NCBI GenBank assembly: GCA_021525805.1
Contig: GCA_021525805.1_3940.1
Reading direction: 5' to 3' (one strand)
Source: a phage
DNA: 64,000 nucleotides
The position numbers were made by a program, and so were the translations under genes. The notes beneath the pieces are model-generated. The model did no database searches, was not told the origin of the DNA, and was given only the letters and a program-made list of their open reading frames with translations. This document shows positions 1,371 to 20,769 of the stretch, piece by piece. Position 1 is the first letter of the stretch. Each line of letters opens with the position of its first letter.

Positions 1371-1390
1371 GCCCCTTACAGGGGTTTTTA
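1371..1390 (+). terminator. putative rho-independent terminator
   Basis: CCCCTTACAGGGG hairpin followed by T-run. Confidence 0.45.
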
Positions 1391-1403
1391 GAGGGCTTAA
1401 ATC

Positions 1404-15873: not shown

Positions 15874-16030
15874 CCTAATAAGATTTTAAAGCCAAGCTTC
15901 ATTCGGATGTTGCTTTGGTATCCCTCGTGTATTGTCGTACACACTGATAAAGCACCTAGTAGGTGTCACGGAGAAGAGATAATATCAAGCTCTCCAAAGG
16001 TTCTAGTCACCGGATTAAACAAGACTATGC

Positions 16031-16053
16031 AAAGACCTTTTTAGGTCTTTTTA
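16031..16053 (+). terminator. putative rho-independent terminator
   Basis: AAGACC-TTTTT-AGGTCTT followed by TTTT. Confidence 0.55.
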
Positions 16054-16131
16054 GAGGGCTTCTAAGGTTATTACAGCTTGTTGTGGAACCTTGTTGCTTA
16101 GGTTCTTAGAAGTTCTCTAAAAAGATTTAAT

Positions 16132-16209
16132 GGGAGATTGACGGTAATTGGTAAACCTATCTCGCTTAGAACGAGATGTTTGAGGGTTCGAATCCCTTGT
16201 CTCCTACCA
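16132..16209 (+). tRNA. tRNA with anticodon TAG (Leu-type anticodon, short variable arm)
   Basis: acceptor GGGAGAT/GTCTCCT, anticodon arm TCTCG-CTTAGAA-CGAGA perfect, T-arm GAGGGTTCGAATCCCTT, A73, CCA encoded. Confidence 0.6.
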
Positions 16210-16216
16210 AATTAAT

Positions 16217-16292
16217 GCAGGTGTAGCAAAATGGTTATGCGGCTGACTCTTAATCAGTAAGACGATGGGTTCAATTCCCTCCACCTGTACCA
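16217..16292 (+). tRNA. tRNA-Lys (anticodon CTT)
   Basis: acceptor GCAGGTG/CACCTGT; anticodon arm GCTGA-CTCTTAA-TCAGT; CCA encoded; paralogue of the TTT copy. Confidence 0.7.
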
Positions 16293-16298
16293 GATATT

Positions 16299-16373
16299 GG
16301 GGATGTAGTTTACATGGTTAAAACATAAGTTTTGCAAACTTAAGTACAGGGTTCAATTCCCTGCTTCTCCACC
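16299..16373 (+). tRNA. tRNA-Cys (anticodon GCA)
   Basis: anticodon arm AAGTT-TTGCAAA-AACTT; T-arm CAGGGTTCAATTCCCTG; CCA encoded. Confidence 0.65.
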
Positions 16374-16380
16374 AATTAGT

Positions 16381-16455
16381 GCATCCATAGTTTAAACGGG
16401 AAAATTACAGTCTTCCAAACTGAGGTTGAGGGTTCGATTCCCTCTGGATGCTCCA
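16381..16455 (+). tRNA. tRNA-Gly (anticodon TCC)
   Basis: acceptor GCATCCA/TGGATGC perfect; loop CTTCCAA; T-arm GAGGGTTCGATTCCCTC; CCA encoded. Confidence 0.75.
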
Positions 16456-16461
16456 AACAAT

Positions 16462-16538
16462 GCTGCTTTCGTATAATTGGCTATTACACATCCCTTGTAA
16501 GGATGGAAATGCAGGTTCGAGTCCTGTGAGCAGCACCA
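16462..16538 (+). tRNA. tRNA-Thr (anticodon TGT)
   Basis: anticodon arm CATCC-CTTGTAA-GGATG perfect; T-arm CAGGTTCGAGTCCTG; CCA encoded. Confidence 0.75.
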
Positions 16539-16540
16539 AT

Positions 16541-16632
16541 TCAGAGGTCAAGTGAAAGACCGCTGGTGTCAACTGAAGACCGTAACAAATTCCACGGAGT
16601 TGAGTTAGCGGCACAACTTCAGACCTCTTTCA
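16541..16632 (+). ncRNA. candidate structured RNA S6 (outer helix AGAGGTC/GACCTCT enclosing about 75 nt with box-like GAAGACCGT)
   Basis: nested complementary segments CTGAAG/CTTCAG, GTTG/CAAC; no tRNA T-loop; no ORF. Confidence 0.35.
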
Positions 16633-16633
16633 T

Positions 16634-16708
16634 ACTCGCTTAGTTTATATGGTAAAACATCACCCTTACAAGATGAAGAAAAAGGTTCAAGTCCTTTAGT
16701 GAGTACCA
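16634..16708 (+). tRNA. tRNA-Val (anticodon TAC)
   Basis: acceptor ACTCGCT/AGTGAGT, loop CTTACAA, T-arm AAAGGTTCAAGTCCTTT perfect, CCA encoded. Confidence 0.65.
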
Positions 16709-16709
16709 T

Positions 16710-16787
16710 GTTCCAGTATCCCAATTGGCAGAGGATGCAAGCTCAAACCTTGTATTAGTGACGGTTCGAATCCGTCTTGGAACACCA
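16710..16787 (+). tRNA. tRNA with anticodon CAA (Leu-type anticodon, short variable arm)
   Basis: acceptor GTTCCAG/TTGGAAC; D-loop AATTGGCAGA; anticodon arm GCAAG-CTCAAAC-CTTGT; CCA encoded. Confidence 0.6.
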
Positions 16788-16805
16788 ATTTAAAGAGGCT
16801 ATTTA

Positions 16806-17363
16806 ATGAGATATTTGAAGTATGCTTCATGGATTTTCTTAGCTTTACTAGACCCAATTGCAGCAACCCTAGCAGTTATCTTAGCACCTTTCGTAGTTCC
16901 ATTCTACAGTGAGAAGAAAGGGCATCTACCTTTTGGATTCAGATGGATGGAGACCTATGACAACCCGATTGATGGTGATAAAGGCCACGTTGAGAGATGG
17001 GCTAAGATTAGAAAGATTGGTAAGCTCGGTGTTTATATGCAGAGAGTTGGATGGCTCTGGAGAAACAAAGCTTATAACTTCTCTTACCATGTATTAGGAA
17101 GAGATGTAAAAGATGTTACTAAGTGGAAAGGCAATATCAACGTAAGTTCTGACCCTGAAGATAATCAGACTGGTTATCTCCTAATGTGGAACAGCAATGC
17201 TTGGGGATTATTCGCTTTTATCCCATCAATTAAAGTCTTTGGTAAACAATTTTACTGGAGAATTTATGTTGGGTGGAAACTAAAAAGTGTTGTCCCAGAA
17301 GAAAGAGCATTCTCAAGGGAAAGAGTTATGTTGGCATTCTTTATTCATCCACTGAGAAAGTAA
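16806..17363 (+). CDS. hypothetical membrane protein embedded in tRNA array
   Basis: 185-aa ORF with AAGAGG RBS; N-terminal TM segment WIFLALLDPIAATLAVILAPFVV. Confidence 0.6.
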   Translation: MRYLKYASWIFLALLDPIAATLAVILAPFVVPFYSEKKGHLPFGFRWMETYDNPIDGDKGHVERWAKIRKIGKLGVYMQRVGWLWRNKAYNFSYHVLGRDVKDVTKWKGNINVSSDPEDNQTGYLLMWNSNAWGLFAFIPSIKVFGKQFYWRIYVGWKLKSVVPEERAFSRERVMLAFFIHPLRK

Positions 17364-17371
17364 AGATTTAA

Positions 17372-17447
17372 AGGGGATTAGTTTACAAGGTTAAAACCTC
17401 GGTCTTTGAAATCGAAGAAGTTGGTTCAATTCCAACATCCCCCGCCA
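17372..17447 (+). tRNA. tRNA-Gln (anticodon TTG)
   Basis: anticodon arm TCGGT-CTTTGAA-ATCGA; T-arm GTTGGTTCAATTCCAAC perfect; CCA encoded. Confidence 0.65.
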
Positions 17448-17449
17448 AT

Positions 17450-17528
17450 GCTCCATTACTCCAATTGGCAGAGAGGCCAGACTTAAAATCTGTGTTATGT
17501 ATCGGTTCGAATCCGATATGGAGTACCA
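17450..17528 (+). tRNA. tRNA with anticodon TAA (Leu-type anticodon)
   Basis: acceptor GCTCCAT/ATGGAGT; D-loop AATTGGCAGA; loop CTTAAAA; T-arm ATCGGTTCGAATCCGAT perfect; CCA encoded. Confidence 0.6.
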
Positions 17529-17533
17529 AATTT

Positions 17534-17609
17534 AGCGGTATAGCATAACTGGCAATGCAACAGTCTCTGAAGCTGTCCTATTAAGGTTCAAATCCTTATG
17601 CCGCTGCCA
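17534..17609 (+). tRNA. tRNA-Gln (anticodon CTG)
   Basis: anticodon arm ACAGT-CTCTGAA-GCTGT; T-arm TAAGGTTCAAATCCTTA perfect; CCA encoded. Confidence 0.65.
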
Positions 17610-17640
17610 CTTCTAAGGGTTCTTACGAGAGTCCTTAAAT

Positions 17641-17716
17641 GTGGCCTTATCATAAATGGTAATGACCCATGCTGTGAACATGGTCTATACGGGTTCAAAT
17701 CCCGTAGGTCACCCCA
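17641..17716 (+). tRNA. tRNA-His (anticodon GTG)
   Basis: anticodon arm CCATG-CTGTGAA-CATGG perfect; acceptor GTGGCCT/AGGTCAC; CCA encoded. Confidence 0.75.
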
Positions 17717-17722
17717 ATTTAT

Positions 17723-17798
17723 AGTCCAAGTAGCTTATATGGTTAAAGCGCGTGTCTGAAAAACATGAGAAGAGGGTTCAAATCCCACTGGACTACCA
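17723..17798 (+). tRNA. tRNA-Phe (anticodon GAA)
   Basis: anticodon arm CGTGT-CTGAAAA-ACATG; T-loop TTCAAAT; CCA encoded. Confidence 0.7.
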
Positions 17799-17814
17799 AT
17801 TTCAAAGGTGCTTA

Positions 17815-18549
17815 ATGAAAGAGATGACAGAACAAGGTAAGGAGATTTTTAATCTCTTAAAAACCGGTAAAGGGTTTTCTAACCCACTTATTACTGGTGC
17901 AGCAGTTCTCGGTGGAACCGTAGCTGCCTCAACATCACTTATAAGCTCTATTAGCTCTGTAACAGACCCTACAATGAAGGAGAAGCTTGTTGCTGCTGGA
18001 CTTACAACAGTCCTTCTAAACAGCTTTACAACAAGCCTGACAAGCACTACAGCAACTACTAAGACCCTAACAGACTATGGTCAAAAGTCTATTGATGAGT
18101 TTTCATCACGTATGCAGGTAGCAAAGGGATACTCCAATGTTATGGGTGCAGCAGGAGAACAAGTTGGTTGTACACCATTCAGTGGTATTATGGGTGTTGC
18201 TACAGAATATGGTCAAAAAGCTATTGACATGATGAACAGTACACTAGATAGTGTTAATGGTGTGTTAAGTGACTTACAAGATGCTATTGATAAGGGTCTT
18301 GATACTGTTTCTGATTTGGCTAACCAAGCTGTTAGCAAGATTAATGAAGGTATCTCAAAGATTACAGCTTATGCAGATGAAGTTGTGCAGATGATTGAAG
18401 AAGAAGCTGCCCTTATTGCAGAGTACCTTAAAACGAATATCAATGGGTTCTTAGCAGGTATCTTACCAGACTGGTTTGATGATGCTTGTAAAACTGGTGT
18501 AATCGACACTATTGCAACACCAGAAATGAAGAACGCATTGCAGAAATAA
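17815..18549 (+). CDS. hypothetical Ser/Thr/Ala-rich protein (start refined from track ORF 17752..18549)
   Basis: track ORF starts at GTG inside tRNA-Phe; ATG at 17815 lies just past the tRNA; stop abuts tRNA-Ser. Confidence 0.55.
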   Translation: MKEMTEQGKEIFNLLKTGKGFSNPLITGAAVLGGTVAASTSLISSISSVTDPTMKEKLVAAGLTTVLLNSFTTSLTSTTATTKTLTDYGQKSIDEFSSRMQVAKGYSNVMGAAGEQVGCTPFSGIMGVATEYGQKAIDMMNSTLDSVNGVLSDLQDAIDKGLDTVSDLANQAVSKINEGISKITAYADEVVQMIEEEAALIAEYLKTNINGFLAGILPDWFDDACKTGVIDTIATPEMKNALQK

Positions 18550-18550
18550 T

Positions 18551-18643
18551 GGAAGATTAACCCTAAAAGGTAAGGGAGCAGTTTGCTAAACTGCCAGTAG
18601 CTGAGAAATCGGTGTACCAGTTCAAGTCTGGTATCTTCCTCCA
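18551..18643 (+). tRNA. tRNA-Ser (anticodon GCT), long variable arm
   Basis: 93 nt; acceptor GGAAGAT/ATCTTCC perfect; anticodon arm GCAGT-TTGCTAA-ACTGC perfect; T-arm ACCAGTTCAAGTCTGGT; CCA encoded. Confidence 0.75.
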
Positions 18644-18647
18644 ATTT

Positions 18648-18723
18648 GAATCCGTGACAGAAATGGCTATGTGCCTGTCTGCAAAACAGGTTTATAAGTG
18701 TTCAAGTCCCTTCGGATTCTCCA
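18648..18723 (+). tRNA. tRNA with anticodon GCA (second Cys-type copy)
   Basis: acceptor GAATCCG/CGGATTC perfect; anticodon arm CCTGT-CTGCAAA-ACAGG perfect; CCA encoded. Confidence 0.6.
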
Positions 18724-18759
18724 AGTTATTTTACTCTCTCTCAATTAAAATAATAATAA

Positions 18760-18820
18760 TGCCCTGCTATAAGTATTCTTCCTTTCGCTACCGAAGAGTA
18801 TTTTTAGACAGGGCTTTTTT
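18760..18820 (+). terminator. compound hairpin terminator closing the tRNA array
   Basis: GCCCTG...CAGGGC outer stem with nested AAGAGTATT palindrome, followed by TTTTTT. Confidence 0.55.
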
Positions 18821-18883
18821 ACAGAGTTATACTTTATAGGAAGACTTATACAGTATGTCTCTGACGTACATTGTGGTTTCTCC

Positions 18884-18910
18884 TTGACGGTCTCTGTGCC
18901 GTCTTTTTTA
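18884..18910 (+). terminator. putative rho-independent terminator
   Basis: GACGG-TCTCTGTG-CCGTC followed by TTTTTT. Confidence 0.5.
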
Positions 18911-18945
18911 AGGGGAAACATGGTTAATTATTTGGAGAAAACATA

Positions 18946-19146
18946 ATGAGTGAGACCGTTTATAAAGAACTTTATGAAGCTAATAAAAAGCTAGAATTTA
19001 TGCAGAACACTATCATGGCAATTGCAGATAGATTATCTGTAGCAACAGGTATTGATATTAAAGAAGCATCTATGGATGCACTTCTGGATGCTGTTGATGC
19101 AAAGTTCGAAGTTAAGAAAGAAGAGACTGCTACAGACTCTGAATAA
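18946..19146 (+). CDS. hypothetical small protein preceding terminase (possible small terminase subunit or accessory)
   Basis: 66-aa ORF with GGAG RBS; position only. Confidence 0.35.
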   Translation: MSETVYKELYEANKKLEFMQNTIMAIADRLSVATGIDIKEASMDALLDAVDAKFEVKKEETATDSE

Positions 19147-19152
19147 TTCTAT

Positions 19153-20769
19153 TTGCGGAGGCGCTTAATGGACTTAAATGCTGTTAAGCAGAAGCGAGTG
19201 GAAGATGTTAGGAAAGTCCTAGCTGGAGAGTTGGGGCTTTCTGATGAAGTAAAAGAAATTATTAAATCATTCGGTAAAGACCCCTCTAAATTCCTTCCAA
19301 CTCAAATTCTGACTTTATTAAGATACACACCAGACCAAGTTCGCCTTATCTTTAAATTGATGACTGATAAGAACTATGTAGCCCCTCAGCCGGGTTCTCA
19401 AGAGGTCTTTTTAAATACTAATGCTGACTTGGTTCTCTATGGTGGTGCTGCTGGTGCTGGTAAGACTGCTGCATTGTTAATGGACTCTTTAAGATTTATT
19501 GAAGACCCTAACTATAACGCTGTATATTTCCGTCGAAATACAACACAGTTACAAGGTGGTTTATGGCCTGCTGCAAAGAAACTATTTGGTAAGTTTGGTG
19601 GGATTCCTCACGAGCAGAAAATGACTATCACATTCCCTTCTGGGGCGACTATCAAGTTTACCTATCTAGAACTTGAAAAGCACGCTGAAGGTCATCAGGG
19701 TATTGAATACTCAGCTATTTACTTTGACGAAGGTACACACTTCTCTGCTTCACAGATTTCATACCTACAAACACGTCTTCGTTCTGGTGCTGAAGGTGAT
19801 TCATACATGAAAATTTCCATGAACCCAGACAGAGACCACTTTATTTATGATTGGGTAGAACCATTCTTAGATGAAGAAGGTTATCCAGACCCTGAAAAGT
19901 GTGGTCGTATTCGTTGGTATGTAATGAATGATGGTGTGATGGTTTCTGATTGGGAGAGAGACAAGATTCTTGAAATGTTCCCTCTTGAGATTCCTCAAAC
20001 ATACACCTTCATCTCTGGTACGATTGATGATAACCCAATTCTTGACTTCTTAGAACCTAAGTATCGTGGTAAGTTGGAAAACAACACCCCTGTAAACGTT
20101 GCAAGACTTCGTTTCGGTAACTGGAAGGCTCGTGCAGAAGGTTCAAACTATTGGCAAAGACAATGGTGTGAAATTGTTGATTCGCTCCCAGAGGATGTAT
20201 TTGATGTTAGAGCATGGGACTTAGCAGCGACTTTACCATCTGAAATTAACCCTAATCCAGACTGGACAGCAGGTGTTAAGATGGGTAAATCTAAAAAAGA
20301 CGGTTGCTATTATATCATTGATGTAGTAAGATTTAGAGATAGACCCTCTGGAGTCGAAACACAAATTAATTTGACTGCTGAAAGTGACGGTAAGCGAACT
20401 GGTATTTTTATCCCTCAAGACCCAGGCGCTGCTGGTAAATCCTACGCAACATCCCTCATCAGGAAACTTGCCGAGAAAGGTTATCGAGCAAGAGCCAAAC
20501 CAACAAATAAAGATAAAGTTACCCGCTTTGCGGGATTTTCTGCTGCTTCTGAAGCTGGACTTGTAAAAGTCTTGAGAGGTAGTTGGAACGAAGCTTATTT
20601 TCAAGAGCTTGAAGGCTTTTGTGGTGATGGCAAAACTAAAGATGACCAAGTGGATGCTACCAGTGATGCTTTCAACAGTCTTAACGAAGTTAAATTATTC
20701 AAGCCACCATCAATGGGTGCTCACACAGACTTAGTGAGAGGAAACCCATATGAGGGGCTTAGACGTTGA
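19153..20769 (+). CDS. terL: terminase large subunit
   Basis: 538 aa; Walker A LYGGAAGAGKTAA; Walker B-like IYFDEGTHF; gene order with portal. Confidence 0.85.
   Translation: MRRRLMDLNAVKQKRVEDVRKVLAGELGLSDEVKEIIKSFGKDPSKFLPTQILTLLRYTPDQVRLIFKLMTDKNYVAPQPGSQEVFLNTNADLVLYGGAAGAGKTAALLMDSLRFIEDPNYNAVYFRRNTTQLQGGLWPAAKKLFGKFGGIPHEQKMTITFPSGATIKFTYLELEKHAEGHQGIEYSAIYFDEGTHFSASQISYLQTRLRSGAEGDSYMKISMNPDRDHFIYDWVEPFLDEEGYPDPEKCGRIRWYVMNDGVMVSDWERDKILEMFPLEIPQTYTFISGTIDDNPILDFLEPKYRGKLENNTPVNVARLRFGNWKARAEGSNYWQRQWCEIVDSLPEDVFDVRAWDLAATLPSEINPNPDWTAGVKMGKSKKDGCYYIIDVVRFRDRPSGVETQINLTAESDGKRTGIFIPQDPGAAGKSYATSLIRKLAEKGYRARAKPTNKDKVTRFAGFSAASEAGLVKVLRGSWNEAYFQELEGFCGDGKTKDDQVDATSDAFNSLNEVKLFKPPSMGAHTDLVRGNPYEGLRR

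Follow-up and report, generated by a model that had tools for sequence, protein, structure and literature searches.

A conserved, structured and putatively non-coding RNA module between tRNA-Ser and tRNA-Leu in the tRNA cluster of a Felix O1-like phage

Felix O1-type phages, classic tools for typing Salmonella, are also widely used in biocontrol and therapy, and the current annotation of their tRNA region consists of tRNAs and a changing set of tiny 'hypothetical proteins'. Here we ask what lies between two of these tRNA genes in a Felix O1-like phage, for which a stretch of 64,000 nt (the window) was analyzed.

The spacer and its surroundings

All 22 of the 22 tRNAs detected by ARAGORN in the cluster are located on the + strand. 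A preliminary description of this locus had placed a structured, ORF-free segment between tRNA-Ser(TGA) and the next tRNA, and these flanks were confirmed as tRNA-Ser(UGA) at 15786-15875 (+; ARAGORN, Rfam tRNA at 33.2 bits, and sequence) and tRNA-Leu(UAG) at 16132-16209 (+; ARAGORN and Rfam). The gap between them, given as 180 nt, is actually 256 nt long (15876-16131), as the description ended at a T-run and missed the remainder of a long hairpin. Its four inverted repeats were all found in place, namely CCAAGC/GCTTTGG (15892-15897/15912-15918), CACCTAGTAGGTG (15953-15965), GGAGA/TCTCC (15970-15974/15991-15995) and AAGACC-TTTTT-AGGTCTT-TTTT (16032-16053); the hairpins, described as nested, are arranged in tandem. 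Structure, for its part, is borne out by conservation and covariation, but not by the folding energy of the 178-nt segment alone (-40.4 kcal/mol, z -1.30, with 23 of 200 shuffles as good). Unlike that segment, the whole spacer stands out (z -3.47), as do the long hairpin at 16042-16131 (z -6.72) and a small hairpin at 16031-16050 (-9.3 kcal/mol, z -3.66). Thus, what raises this feature beyond chance is its conservation and covariation, and not the palindromes themselves.

The spacer begins with an A/U-rich leader, UAAUAAGAUUUUAAA (15876-15890, +), which is recognized by its conservation and by a recurring motif, and which constitutes the trailer of tRNA-Ser. The motif, AAGAUUU(U)AA, is also found immediately 5' of several tRNAs, with copies at 15044-15051, 16124-16131 and 17365-17371, and the first 11 nt of the leader are unchanged across six spacers, including those of the distant loci L068 and L069. 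Since tRNA-Ser(UGA) ends in ...GCC, without an encoded CCA, maturation of its 3' end must involve trimming within this leader, which may represent the endonuclease entry site that creates the 5' end of the spacer RNA. At the other border, and in line with established tRNA biology, that RNA would be delimited on its 3' side by RNase P, cleaving at 16131/16132.

The closest upstream sigma-70-type promoter, TTGACA-17-TATAGT at 15143-15171 (+), matches the consensus at 11 of 12 positions and is the likely source of the transcript; it corresponds to P45 in the Felix O1 genome paper (PMC3185647). A consensus scan called no promoter between the first hairpin (H1) and the conserved core of the element, nor inside the long hairpin (H6), and a fixed -35/-10 spacing between H1 and the core is ruled out by the variable length of the linker that separates them. 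Two tRNA-like relics are located close upstream of the element (15465-15546 and 15692-15772). As a separate observation, a repeated CAGAAGACC...CAGCAA motif was read directly from the sequence.

Distribution, conservation and fold

The module was found at the same position in about 257 GenBank phage records, 26 IMG/VR loci and 18 metagenome loci. It is also present in three syntenic contigs, in which the Ro60-like protein, whose gene heads the tRNA operon, is 80, 64 and 63% identical. Across 18 divergent loci, an 86-nt core (15949-16034) has an identity of 0.984, a value exceeded by only two of the 22 tRNAs (tRNA-Lys(CUU), 0.996; tRNA-Gly, 0.994), whereas the two protein-coding genes in the cluster reach 0.79 and 0.92 over the same loci. 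Likewise, in the distant loci L068-L070 core identity is 0.90-0.99, against 0.67-0.77 for the Ro60-like coding sequence. These comparisons show, at the level of sequence, that the module is conserved like a tRNA. The preliminary description had also considered that only its terminator might be conserved; the opposite was found, the body being more conserved than the terminator. Moreover, in some relatives homing-endonuclease-type genes have been inserted at either border of the module, which is left intact: in L042 and L049, for instance, a nuclease-like ORF directly precedes the leader, and tRNA-Ser lies approximately 350 nt upstream of the element. Nevertheless, the tRNA region as a whole is unusually conserved and mosaic, with several tRNAs being 100% identical to the copies of distant relatives, so that part of the invariance may stem from recombination or gene conversion rather than from selection.

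Outside this lineage, the element is absent from bacteria and archaea in an exact-pattern scan of one genome from each of 185,579 species, and blastn found none in E. coli genomes; a captured host sRNA was rejected on account of the missing host counterpart in the bacterial-genome scans. In the nearest outgroup clade, the P778-like phages, the Ro60-like protein is about 55% identical, tRNA-Gly comes 13 nt behind tRNA-Ser, and no element could be detected: Yersinia phage P778 and three P778-like contigs gave no match to covariance model R1. However, given the effective sequence number of 0.95 of that model, absence in distant phages is weak evidence. No intermediate outgroup was retrieved from GenBank phages by tblastn with the P778 protein, and intermediate relatives came instead from a large protein search. 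Within the window, covariance model R1 found no paralogue, and 10-12-mers of the element, repeated or complementary, occur elsewhere at chance level, yielding no target site or promoter-like motif. No family match was obtained with the 4227 Rfam models, at E up to 1 over 13500-19000 and up to 10 over the spacer; the only sub-threshold hits were plant miRNA-precursor models on H6 (highest score 32.7 bits, threshold 52), which reflect the long hairpin and not homology. No described counterpart was found in the literature searched.

Downstream of the leader, the spacer folds into a series of hairpins on the + strand. The first, H1 (15891-15919), is a two-part hairpin with a 7-bp lower stem carrying one bulge, a 3-bp upper stem and a UCGG loop. 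Its fold is kept despite sequence change: identity is only 0.55-0.74, yet each of 11 unrelated sequence families folds into a single hairpin whose boundaries coincide with those of the others (z -1.2 to -3.35), and most variants carry a UCG motif at the apex. H2 (15927-15942; GUGUA-UUGUCG-UACAC) tolerates wobble-compatible stem changes (U-A to U.G, A-U to G.U), and in L048/L053 it refolds as GUGUU-GUCG-AACAC, as read by eye from the alignment and left uncounted. It is followed by a linker and a conserved AAA (15943-15951), a stretch that in the alignments varies in both length and sequence (identity 0.66-0.74, indels of 0-8 nt).

The invariant core opens with H3 (15952-15966), (G)CACCU-AGU-AGGUG(U), which is unchanged in 50 unique spacers and in L068-L070, L074 and L076, barring two changes, one of the closing G.U to A-U and the other of a loop U to C. 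H4 (15970-15995), GGAGA-AGA-GAU-AAU-AUC-AAGC-UCUCC, is a nearly invariant stem with internal loops, in which the apical triloop reads AAU, AGU, AGC or GAU and loses 1 nt in L076. Its closing G-C pair becomes G.U in two sequences, and the remainder outside the triloop is invariant, also in L068/L069. A nearly invariant single-stranded segment, AAAGGUUC (15996-16003), follows in the alignment, with A15996 to G (two sequences) and U16002 to A (L068/L069) as its only changes. H4b (16004-16027) is then formed by UAGUC, the 14-nt loop ACCGGAUUAAACAA and GACUA. Its pair 16007:16024 changes from U-A to C-G in L068/L069, a compensatory pair, and its loop accommodates substitutions at three positions and a 1-nt deletion in phage Bas63.

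The last two hairpins overlap. H5 (16031-16050; AAAGACC-loop-GGUCUUU) corresponds to the small hairpin of -9.3 kcal/mol mentioned above, and its stem is retained with at least seven different loop sequences and with A-U to G.U and C-G to U.G as the only stem changes. The 3' strand of H5 is also part of the base of H6 (16042-16129), a long hairpin with a variable apical part and a 26-bp lower helix that pairs 16042-16067 with 16104-16129 (-36.7 kcal/mol, z -6.72) and ends 2 nt 5' of tRNA-Leu. H6 may represent a double-strand-specific, RNase III-type processing site that splits the upstream RNA from pre-tRNA-Leu, in which case the RNA set free would be capped by H5 at its 3' end.

Covariation was seen in H6, in which 99.7-99.9% of the alignment cells are paired on the 50 spacers, and 99.3% in the alignment that revealed the double-sided changes, against 35-52% in slid controls. 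Five of its pairs, 16051:16120 of the T-run among them, show such changes, and several of its G.U pairs would be C/A mismatches if read on the opposite strand. More generally, one-sided stem changes are all wobble-compatible on the + strand, and variation in the core is limited to loops, where its substitutions and 1-nt deletions are located, to wobble-compatible stem changes and to the one compensatory pair. These alignments show selection for + strand pairing in H1, H4b, H5 and H6. In turn, no covariation was found in H3-H4, neither in the 50 unique spacers nor in the comparison with L068/L069, as the stems do not vary, and the invariance of H3/H4 could equally reflect a DNA-level or a cis role.

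Interpretation and alternative explanations

Overall, we consider it somewhat better than an even bet (probability of about 0.55) that the spacer 15876-16131 is a lineage-specific, non-coding structured RNA module transcribed with the tRNAs. The best reading of the element, as far as sequence can indicate, would be a new non-coding RNA family cut from a tRNA precursor. Such an RNA would comprise a body of about 175 nt, with fast-evolving H1 and H2, the invariant H3-H4-H4b and the closing H5, and a second part, the 26-bp helix H6, overlapping H5 and extending up to 2 nt 5' of tRNA-Leu. A polycistronic transcript starting at the promoter at 15143-15171, or further upstream, would be cut within the A/U-rich trailer of tRNA-Ser, in the H6 duplex by an RNase III-type activity, and at 16131/16132 by RNase P, which would release tRNA-Ser and tRNA-Leu and, from between them, a discrete RNA some 170-180 nt long. 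After cleavage of H6, H5 would cap the 3' end of the released RNA, which could accumulate stably and act in trans through the invariant H3-H4-H4b. As both stems and loops are sequence-invariant in that part, it would most likely bind a protein partner in a sequence-specific manner.

A rival explanation is that the spacer works purely in cis, its hairpins guiding the folding of the precursor and its cleavage by RNase E, RNase III and RNase P, with the excised piece being degraded without further function. The position of the end of H6, 2 nt from the RNase P site, agrees with such a role, as do the 3' processing required by a tRNA-Ser without encoded CCA and the leader motif GAUUUAAU, which recurs before other tRNAs. 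Several other spacers of the cluster are likewise conserved and structured, to which a generic processing role would fit, and P778-like phages manage without the element. However, processing signals rarely need 86 nearly invariant nucleotides, loops and single strands included, and it is H6, the helix closest to the cleavage sites, together with H1, that evolves freely. In addition, the element survives the insertion of genes between itself and either tRNA, and so it need not adjoin them. We therefore regard a purely cis-acting spacer as doubtful, even if it deserves serious consideration.

Conservation could also operate on the DNA, which might hold a homing-endonuclease target, a tract of co-conversion, a site bound by a protein, or a signal for replication or packaging; the RNA folds would then be incidental. 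The insertion of homing-endonuclease-type genes at both borders, the mosaic tRNA region with 100%-identical segments common to distant phages, and the lack of covariation in H3-H4 would all be accounted for. Yet H6 separates the core from the HNH insertion site, and H1 from the other site, and both vary far more than the core does, whereas a co-conversion gradient would run the other way. Moreover, it is only on the + strand that the stem changes are compatible with G.U pairing, H4b and H6 contain compensatory pairs, loops tolerate 1-nt indels, and the k-mers of the core are not repeated elsewhere in the window, all of which makes a DNA-level explanation quite unlikely.

The preliminary description had called the end of its segment a strong terminator, which overstates the case. 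H5 is a modest hairpin, with a stem of 7-8 bp and three G-C pairs that falls below the criteria of the consensus scan and was not called by it, and the T-run is one strand of the 26-bp helix. As a terminator, H5 would be weak at most. The tail that follows H5 reads UUUUUAG in Felix-, Moogle- and Susp-type phages and UUUGUAG in L068/L069, so that the U-tract is not conserved as a terminator feature; instead, its position 16051 covaries with 16120 as a base pair of H6, being U-A, a U/C mismatch or G-C. H5 does resemble Rho-independent terminators and Hfq-type sRNA 3' ends in having a run of A before it and UUUUU after it in Felix-type phages, but differs from them in that a G breaks the U-run in L068/L069 and the run forms part of the H6 pairing.

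It is conceivable, nonetheless, that H5 works as an intrinsic terminator splitting the cluster, as part of an attenuator in which the conserved upstream RNA senses a factor and picks a terminator or a read-through fold. Apart from the hairpin and T-run of Felix-type phages, this would be consistent with the competition that H5 meets from the base of H6 and from a GGUU/GACC pairing favoured by RNAalifold, and with the variable positions 16035 and 16037, which remain compatible with both folds. The corresponding antiterminator (GGUU 15999-16002 with GACC 16034-16037) was, however, rejected, as L068/L069 read GGUAC and lose a pair. Against an attenuator also stand the UUUGU of those loci, covarying as a strand of H6, the seven tRNA genes located downstream with no consensus promoter found by the scan at 16054-16131, and the lack of a riboswitch or T-box match in Rfam. 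Furthermore, the terminator table of the Felix O1 paper has no entry in the tRNA-Ser/tRNA-Leu spacer (PMC3185647). Hence, we give this possibility little credence.

A decayed remnant of one or more tRNA genes would explain why the spacer begins after the same leader motif as real tRNAs, why two tRNA-like relics are found close upstream, and why some H1 loops read UUCGAAU, which is T-loop-like. Still, Rfam gave no tRNA or tmRNA score in the spacer at E up to 10, the core has neither a T arm nor an acceptor stem, and a decaying relic would not exceed 20 of 22 live tRNAs in conservation; a pseudogene spacer is thus very improbable.

Finally, the preliminary description had judged an ORF at 15847-16044 to be probably spurious, and this was upheld. 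The ORF exists (+), known as Felix O1 ORF46 and PHROG 36337, begins inside tRNA-Ser and overlaps the core, but its start varies from -85 to +2 among relatives, its frame is not conserved and it is absent in seven variants; it has no match in Pfam, and the match to phrog_36337 reflects only repeated annotation. A second frame with a GTG start and 48 aa (15963-16109, +) is equally spurious, with a variable C-terminus (19 to 52 aa) and a premature stop in L040. L076 and Bas63 have each lost 1 nt from the core, in both cases within this frame, and 2-nt and 7-nt indels are found upstream. Phage L27 annotates this 147-nt frame, whereas bas63_0145 of Bas63 is a different 147-nt CDS with a start further upstream, for which the text of the Bas63 knockout preprint gives no fitness value. 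Taken together, the alignments show that no reading frame is conserved across the element. A small protein (the 65-aa ORF46, the 48-aa GTG ORF or a shorter peptide) may be suggested by the 'hypothetical proteins' of Felix O1, Bas63, L27 and other records, by a PHROG of its own and by one frame being open across the core, but it is barely credible, since start codon, frame and length differ between relatives, the annotated ORFs are mutually incompatible, all three codon positions are equally invariant, and the sequence, read by eye, offers no ATG and no properly spaced ribosome-binding site. If the non-coding RNA reading is correct, one such 'protein' would turn out to be an RNA of tRNA-grade conservation, and annotation would be corrected in more than 250 genomes and one PHROG family.

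Comparison with known phage and bacterial RNAs

The tRNA operon is headed by a gene (12309-13724, +) for a protein with Pfam domains DUF2828 and DUF7788 and a predicted Ro60/TROVE plus vWA fold (AF2 pLDDT 87.8), all of the top 10 PDB matches being Ro60 or TROVE-domain entries. The likeness to Ro60 is seen only through the predicted structure, and sequence and profile searches (PDB chains, Pfam TROVE, NCBIfam) did not reach it. By position and annotation, this protein is the counterpart of Bas63 gp130. As Y RNAs (bacterial YrlA/Yrn1, and Yrl1/Yrl2 of Thermus phage phiLo) are the RNA partners of Ro60, the protein is a speculative candidate partner of the element. Known Y RNAs adjoin Ro60 genes (PMC4201824; PMC12135203), and the element lies 2.15 kb downstream of the Ro60-fold gene on the same strand. 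It is also similar to Y RNAs in size and in having stems with internal loops, while H6 alone would provide a long stem with a looser apical part. Moreover, those who carried out the Bas63 screen raised, as a speculation, the possibility that the 'tRNA' genes of the cluster include Y RNAs (10.1101/2024.10.10.617714).

Several features, on the other hand, set the element apart from Y RNAs. It has no tRNA-like domain, a feature of bacterial YrlA. In Y RNAs the two ends pair into a stem that bears the bulged helix bound by Ro or the GNCGAA/CGAA motif (PMC4201824, PMC12135203); the 5' and 3' ends of the element are not paired with each other, and that motif is absent from its core, CGAA being found only in the apical loop of 5 of 30 H1 variants. 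Rfam Y RNA and YrlA models gave no match in the spacer (E up to 10) or in 13500-19000 (E up to 1), and did not reach gathering score in the window or seven other Ro60-like loci. P778-like phages have the Ro60-like protein without a detectable element. In addition, Bas63 gp130 alone, expressed from a plasmid or from T7, counters the ppl defence (10.1101/2024.10.10.617714), and so this activity needs no phage RNA. A Y-RNA-like role is therefore possible but unsupported. The more specific proposal, that the element binds the Ro60-fold protein through H3-H4-H4b and H1, or through H6, and tethers or gates it on host RNA-decay or defence factors, appears to us unlikely. If true, it would define a new class of non-tRNA-like Y RNAs, and would supply the RNA partner still missing from an anti-defence ribonucleoprotein that occurs in several hundred enterobacterial phages. 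As the head of the operon encodes a reported anti-defence factor, the element is an obvious RNA to test for binding to the Ro60-fold protein, and a lack of binding, too, would leave fewer places to look for the Y RNAs postulated in the cluster.

With regard to its second part, the element is comparable to the RNase III processing hairpins of polycistronic phage and rRNA/tRNA precursors, as H6, a duplex of about 26 bp, would separate two functional RNAs of a single putative transcript, and its pairing is kept by compensatory change while the sequence drifts. The RNase III sites of the T7 early region have characteristic internal loops, and their cleavage leaves the upstream RNA with a 3' hairpin. 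Cleavage of H6 would do the same, although H6 is a nearly perfect helix and its site is predicted from sequence. Such hairpins have no counterpart of the conserved upstream body of the element.

For the element as a whole, the preliminary description had pointed to the small stable RNAs of T4-type tRNA regions, a likeness that holds for its place inside a phage tRNA operon, but not for homology or for the presence of a T arm. Phage T4 rnaC (species 1) and rnaD (species 2) are non-tRNA RNA genes of about 120-140 nt in a tRNA cluster and, like the element, lie on the same strand as the tRNAs. The T4 cluster also contains a homing endonuclease gene, segB (PMC2330249). With filters off, covariance model R1 gave at most 6.8 bits (E of at least 0.28) on the T4 region, and no hit on rnaC or rnaD; neither RNA is included in Rfam, so the silence of Rfam says nothing on their kinship to the element. 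Unlike the element, rnaC folds with a tRNA-like T arm, CCGGGUUCGAAUCCCGG (CCGGG-UUCGAAU-CCCGG). The T4 RNAs are located at the end of their cluster, whereas the element occupies a mid-cluster position with a 26-bp helix after it, and they are annotated as small, stable RNAs in the T4 record, whereas the element is known from sequence alone. To our knowledge, the role of rnaC and rnaD is still unsolved. The element described here represents a concrete, testable candidate for the role of non-tRNA RNAs in phage tRNA operons.

The element and its setting in the tRNA cluster

The window comes from the genome of a Felixounavirus; a 601-base stretch surrounding the finding matches Felix O1 and related phages at 99%. 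ARAGORN locates 22 tRNA genes, all on the + strand, at 13890-18723. This cluster is preceded by a gene on the + strand (12309-13724) and followed by the large terminase gene (19153-20769), whose syntenic gene in relatives carries Terminase_6N/6C Pfam domains. The spacer between tRNA-Ser(UGA) (15786-15875) and tRNA-Leu(UAG) (starting at 16132) measures 256 nt, rather than the 180 nt of a preliminary description made from the sequence alone, and is filled by an element constituting a new family of conserved, structured non-coding RNA within the tRNA operon of phages of the Felix O1 type, hitherto unannotated as such and mis-annotated as small proteins. The element is presumably flanked by a processing helix (H6); its processing sites, a stable product and any function in trans are putative. 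Accordingly, the observation in the preliminary description was partly confirmed, and its interpretation partly supported.

From 5' to 3' on the + strand, an A/U-rich leader (15876-15890; UAAUAAGAUUUUAAA) is followed by H1 (15891-15919), a two-part hairpin with a UCGG loop, by hairpin H2 (15927-15942), a variable linker (15943-15951), hairpin H3 (15952-15966), and H4 (15970-15995), a stem interrupted by internal loops and topped by a triloop. Then come the single strand AAAGGUUC (15996-16003), H4b (16004-16027; a 14-nt loop closed by 5 bp), H5 (16031-16050), the hairpin previously taken for a terminator, and H6 (16042-16129), whose lower 26 bp join 16042-16067 with 16104-16129. Because 16044-16050 is both the 3' strand of H5 and the 5' base of H6, the two are mutually exclusive there. 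All four inverted repeats quoted in the preliminary description were found where it had placed them; they form hairpins in tandem instead of nested palindromes, and ending the segment at the T-run cuts the long hairpin 16042-16131 in half. The 178-nt segment so delimited is not exceptional in folding energy (-40.4 kcal/mol, z -1.30, with 23 of 200 dinucleotide shuffles folding equally well); the complete 256-nt spacer is, at z -3.47, owing to the long hairpin (-36.7 kcal/mol, z -6.72). For the H5 hairpin, the values are -9.3 kcal/mol and z -3.66.

Other features of the cluster, all on the + strand, were also recorded. At 15465-15543, Rfam scores a tRNA (31.7 bits against a gathering threshold of 29) and ARAGORN reports none; relatives annotate tRNA-Arg(UCU) within this interval, and the tRNA in the window is possibly a variant or in decay. 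A tRNA-like sequence at 15692-15772 (acceptor stem GGGACG/CGUCCC, T arm GGGG-UUCAACU-CCUC, trailing ..CCA, an apparently 9-nt "anticodon" loop) is called by neither tool, and its identity across relatives is 0.87-0.96. Spacers 16539-16633, 15547-15691, 14619-14750 and 15260-15450 show tRNA-level conservation (0.94-0.98), and three of the four beat shuffles in folding (z -2.9, -2.5 and -2.4); the element may be one among several unannotated RNA elements of the operon. An exact 25-nt direct repeat, ATTTACAGAAGACCGTTTACAGCAA, occurs in two spacers (14220-14244 and 14765-14789), with diverged copies near 14058 and 14683, and may serve as an endonuclease or regulatory site. Moreover, an A/U-rich GAUUUAA(U)-type motif (15044-15051, 16124-16131, 17365-17371, 15880-15890) stands directly 5' of tRNA-Lys(UUU), tRNA-Leu(UAG), tRNA-Gln(UUG) and also H1, as though the element took the place of a tRNA.

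Conservation and distribution

The window was compared feature by feature with 49 related loci, and 18 "divergent" loci (87-92% overall identity) were considered separately. Across these 18, identity of the core (15949-16034, 86 nt) is 0.984, exceeded only by tRNA-Lys(CUU) (0.996) and tRNA-Gly (0.994); for the remaining tRNAs it lies between 0.75 and 0.97, and for the two protein-coding genes within the cluster it is 0.79 and 0.92. Conservation is near its lowest for the cluster in H1 (0.655), the linker (0.657) and H6 (0.692); only the tRNA-like relic at 15465-15546 ranks lower. Against the distant syntenic contigs L068-L070, the core retains 0.90-0.99, as compared with 0.67-0.77 for the CDS of the Ro60-like protein (12309-13724) and 0.80-0.87 for that of the terminase.

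The core varies only in the apical loop of H4 (AAU, AGU, AGC or GAU, with a 1-nt deletion in locus L076), in the loop of H4b (substitutions at three positions, with a 1-nt deletion in phage Bas63), in closing pairs (H3, G.U to A-U; H4, G-C to G.U), at position 16002, and in one H4b stem pair changed on both sides, from U-A to C-G. Standard pairing on the + strand survives all six one-sided changes at paired positions of H2-H5, most of which yield G.U, where the opposite strand would have A/C mismatches. In 50 unique spacers, 99.7-99.9% of H6 cells are paired versus 35-52% with slid partners, and a six-sequence alignment including distant relatives contains five H6 pairs with double-sided changes; H6 is the best-supported helix of the element. 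H1 falls into at least 11 sequence families that could not be aligned with confidence, each forming a single, identically bounded hairpin (z -1.2 to -3.35), and most variants carry UCG at the apex. Comparative evidence supports helices H1, H4b, H5 and H6 and the non-coding nature of the element, while H3 and H4 are presumed to pair.

Blastn located the spacer in 257 phage records; apart from one 23-nt chance match, these belong to Felixounavirus, Mooglevirus or Suspvirus. The length of the spacer is kept at 240-257 nt. Exact core patterns occur in 26 IMG/VR contigs and 18 metagenome loci; no match was obtained in bacteria and archaea (one genome per species, 185,579 species) or among 5,426 E. 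coli genomes. More distant syntenic contigs were reached through a neighbouring-protein search (protein identity 80% for L070, 64% for L068 and 63% for L069), and R1, a covariance model of the core, detected the element in all three (140-158 bits), there too between tRNA-Ser(UGA) and tRNA-Leu(UAG). The next clade out (Yersinia phage P778 and three similar contigs, protein approximately 55% identical) has no detectable copy; in P778, tRNA-Ser is followed by 13 nt and then another tRNA.

Compared with L068 and L069, the tRNA region 13890-18723 is a mosaic conserved far beyond the surrounding proteins: tRNA-Lys(CUU) and tRNA-Gly are 100% identical to the window in both, tRNA-Asn, tRNA-Leu(CAA) and tRNA-Leu(UAA) in one of them, and the DNA identity of protein-coding genes is only 67-81%. 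Two very different alleles of tRNA-Leu(UAG) are shuffled among otherwise close relatives.

Some relatives bear homing-endonuclease-type genes at both borders of the element. An HNH endonuclease gene lies between H6 and tRNA-Leu in phages mistaenkt and Michonne and in L026, L037 and L038 (2932-3384 in L002, 2943-3395 in L003), inserted 3' of a duplicated GGGAGATTGAC, with an 11-nt duplication of the tRNA-Leu 5' end. A 113-codon ORF between tRNA-Ser and H1 in L042 and L049 (approximately 1245-1585, - strand, in L049) contains, in our own reading, a putative PD-(D/E)XK nuclease-like motif. The H1-to-H6 module is intact in every relative with a border insertion, which argues that it is a discrete unit in its own right, for which contact with either tRNA is dispensable.

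Terminator, Y RNA or small protein gene

H5 and its T-run had been described as a strong terminator. The hairpin is real, since its stem is conserved while the loop is highly variable (at least seven sequences). However, the consensus terminator scan made no call at H5, and the T-run is part of the H6 strand, where 16051 pairs with 16120; the terminators tabulated in the Felix O1 genome paper (PMC3185647) include none in this spacer. The 16051:16120 pair reads U-A in phages of the Felix type, U/C (a mismatch) in those of the Moogle and Susp types and G-C in L068/L069, a textbook compensatory series, and the variants 16125 A to G and 16126 U to C still fit the extended H6 helix. With G-C at this pair, L068/L069 lack the UUUUU, and the post-hairpin sequence is therefore GGUCUUUGUAGAUG, a poor terminator tail. 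Seven tRNA genes lie directly 3' of the element, and a scan found no consensus promoter between H5 and them. We conclude that H5 is, in some lineages, no more than a weak terminator; its conserved role is more likely that of capping the upstream RNA at its 3' end after H6 is opened or cut. An antiterminator pairing of GGUU (15999-16002) with GACC (16034-16037) was dropped, one pair being lost in L068/L069. The 14-mer TTTTTAGAGGGCTT of the H5/H6 junction (16048-16061) has one further copy at 1385-1398 (+).

The protein encoded at 12309-13724 matches Pfam DUF2828 and DUF7788, and its mycobacteriophage homologues are labelled "Ro-like RNA-binding protein". Sequence and profile searches with this protein did not reach Ro60. 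An AlphaFold2 model (32 homologues; pLDDT 87.8, pTM 0.87) had Ro60 or TROVE-domain structures as its ten best PDB matches, all full length (E 8.5e-8 to 2.3e-6) and including Xenopus Ro60, Deinococcus Rsr and Ro60 of Thermus phage phiLo; the protein is predicted to have a full-length Ro60/TROVE+vWA fold. Homologues of the gene are present in 710 phage records, frequently next to tRNA clusters (five of eight lineages inspected); in a Listeria phage, one lies near an RtcB ligase gene. Y RNAs, bound by Ro60 proteins, are encoded next to them (PMC4201824), and the phiLo protein has two such RNA partners (PMC12135203). By position and annotation, the gene is the counterpart of gp130 of Bas63, reported to counter the ppl defence, whose discoverers guessed that some downstream "tRNA" genes are Y RNAs (10.1101/2024.10.10.617714). 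As the most conserved non-tRNA RNA downstream of the Ro60-fold gene, the element is a candidate Y-RNA-like partner, albeit an improbable one, as the available tests speak against it: no Rfam Y RNA model matches, no tRNA-like domain was found in the element, its 5' and 3' ends do not pair, and CGAA is absent from the core and present in only 5 of 30 H1 variants. In addition, gp130 acts on its own when expressed from a plasmid or from T7, and P778-like phages have the Ro60-like protein with no detectable element.

A small protein gene is ruled out by shifting starts and frames, a missing ORF, a premature stop and 1-nt core deletions. ORF 15847-16044 (Felix O1 ORF46), rightly suspected of being spurious in the preliminary description, starts within tRNA-Ser; among the unique variants, its start position relative to the core varies between -85 and +2, its N-terminal frame shifts, with 2-nt and 7-nt indels in the 5' half, and seven variants lack the ORF. 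In ORF 15963-16109, which begins with GTG, the C-terminus is 19 to 52 residues long and a stop occurs prematurely in L040. The deletions of L076 and Bas63 fall inside both frames. Neither product matches Pfam; that of ORF46 matches phrog_36337, simply a record of repeated ORF annotation, and the ORFs annotated over the element differ between records, incompatibly and on both strands.

Comparison with known RNAs

No family of Rfam 15 matches the element, with only sub-threshold plant miRNA precursors on H6, and neither a description of this RNA nor expression data were found in the Felix O1 genome paper (PMC3185647), a computational study of phage Sf14 tRNAs or searches for Felixounavirus transcriptomics. 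The resemblance to small stable RNAs of T4 that had been proposed for the segment holds in part. R1 found nothing in the T4 rnaC/rnaD region, neither RNA being represented in Rfam, and the element lacks the tRNA-type T arm of rnaC; the likeness is therefore not one of family but of place and kind, as rnaC and rnaD lie within the T4 tRNA cluster and the element likewise lies inside a phage tRNA cluster.
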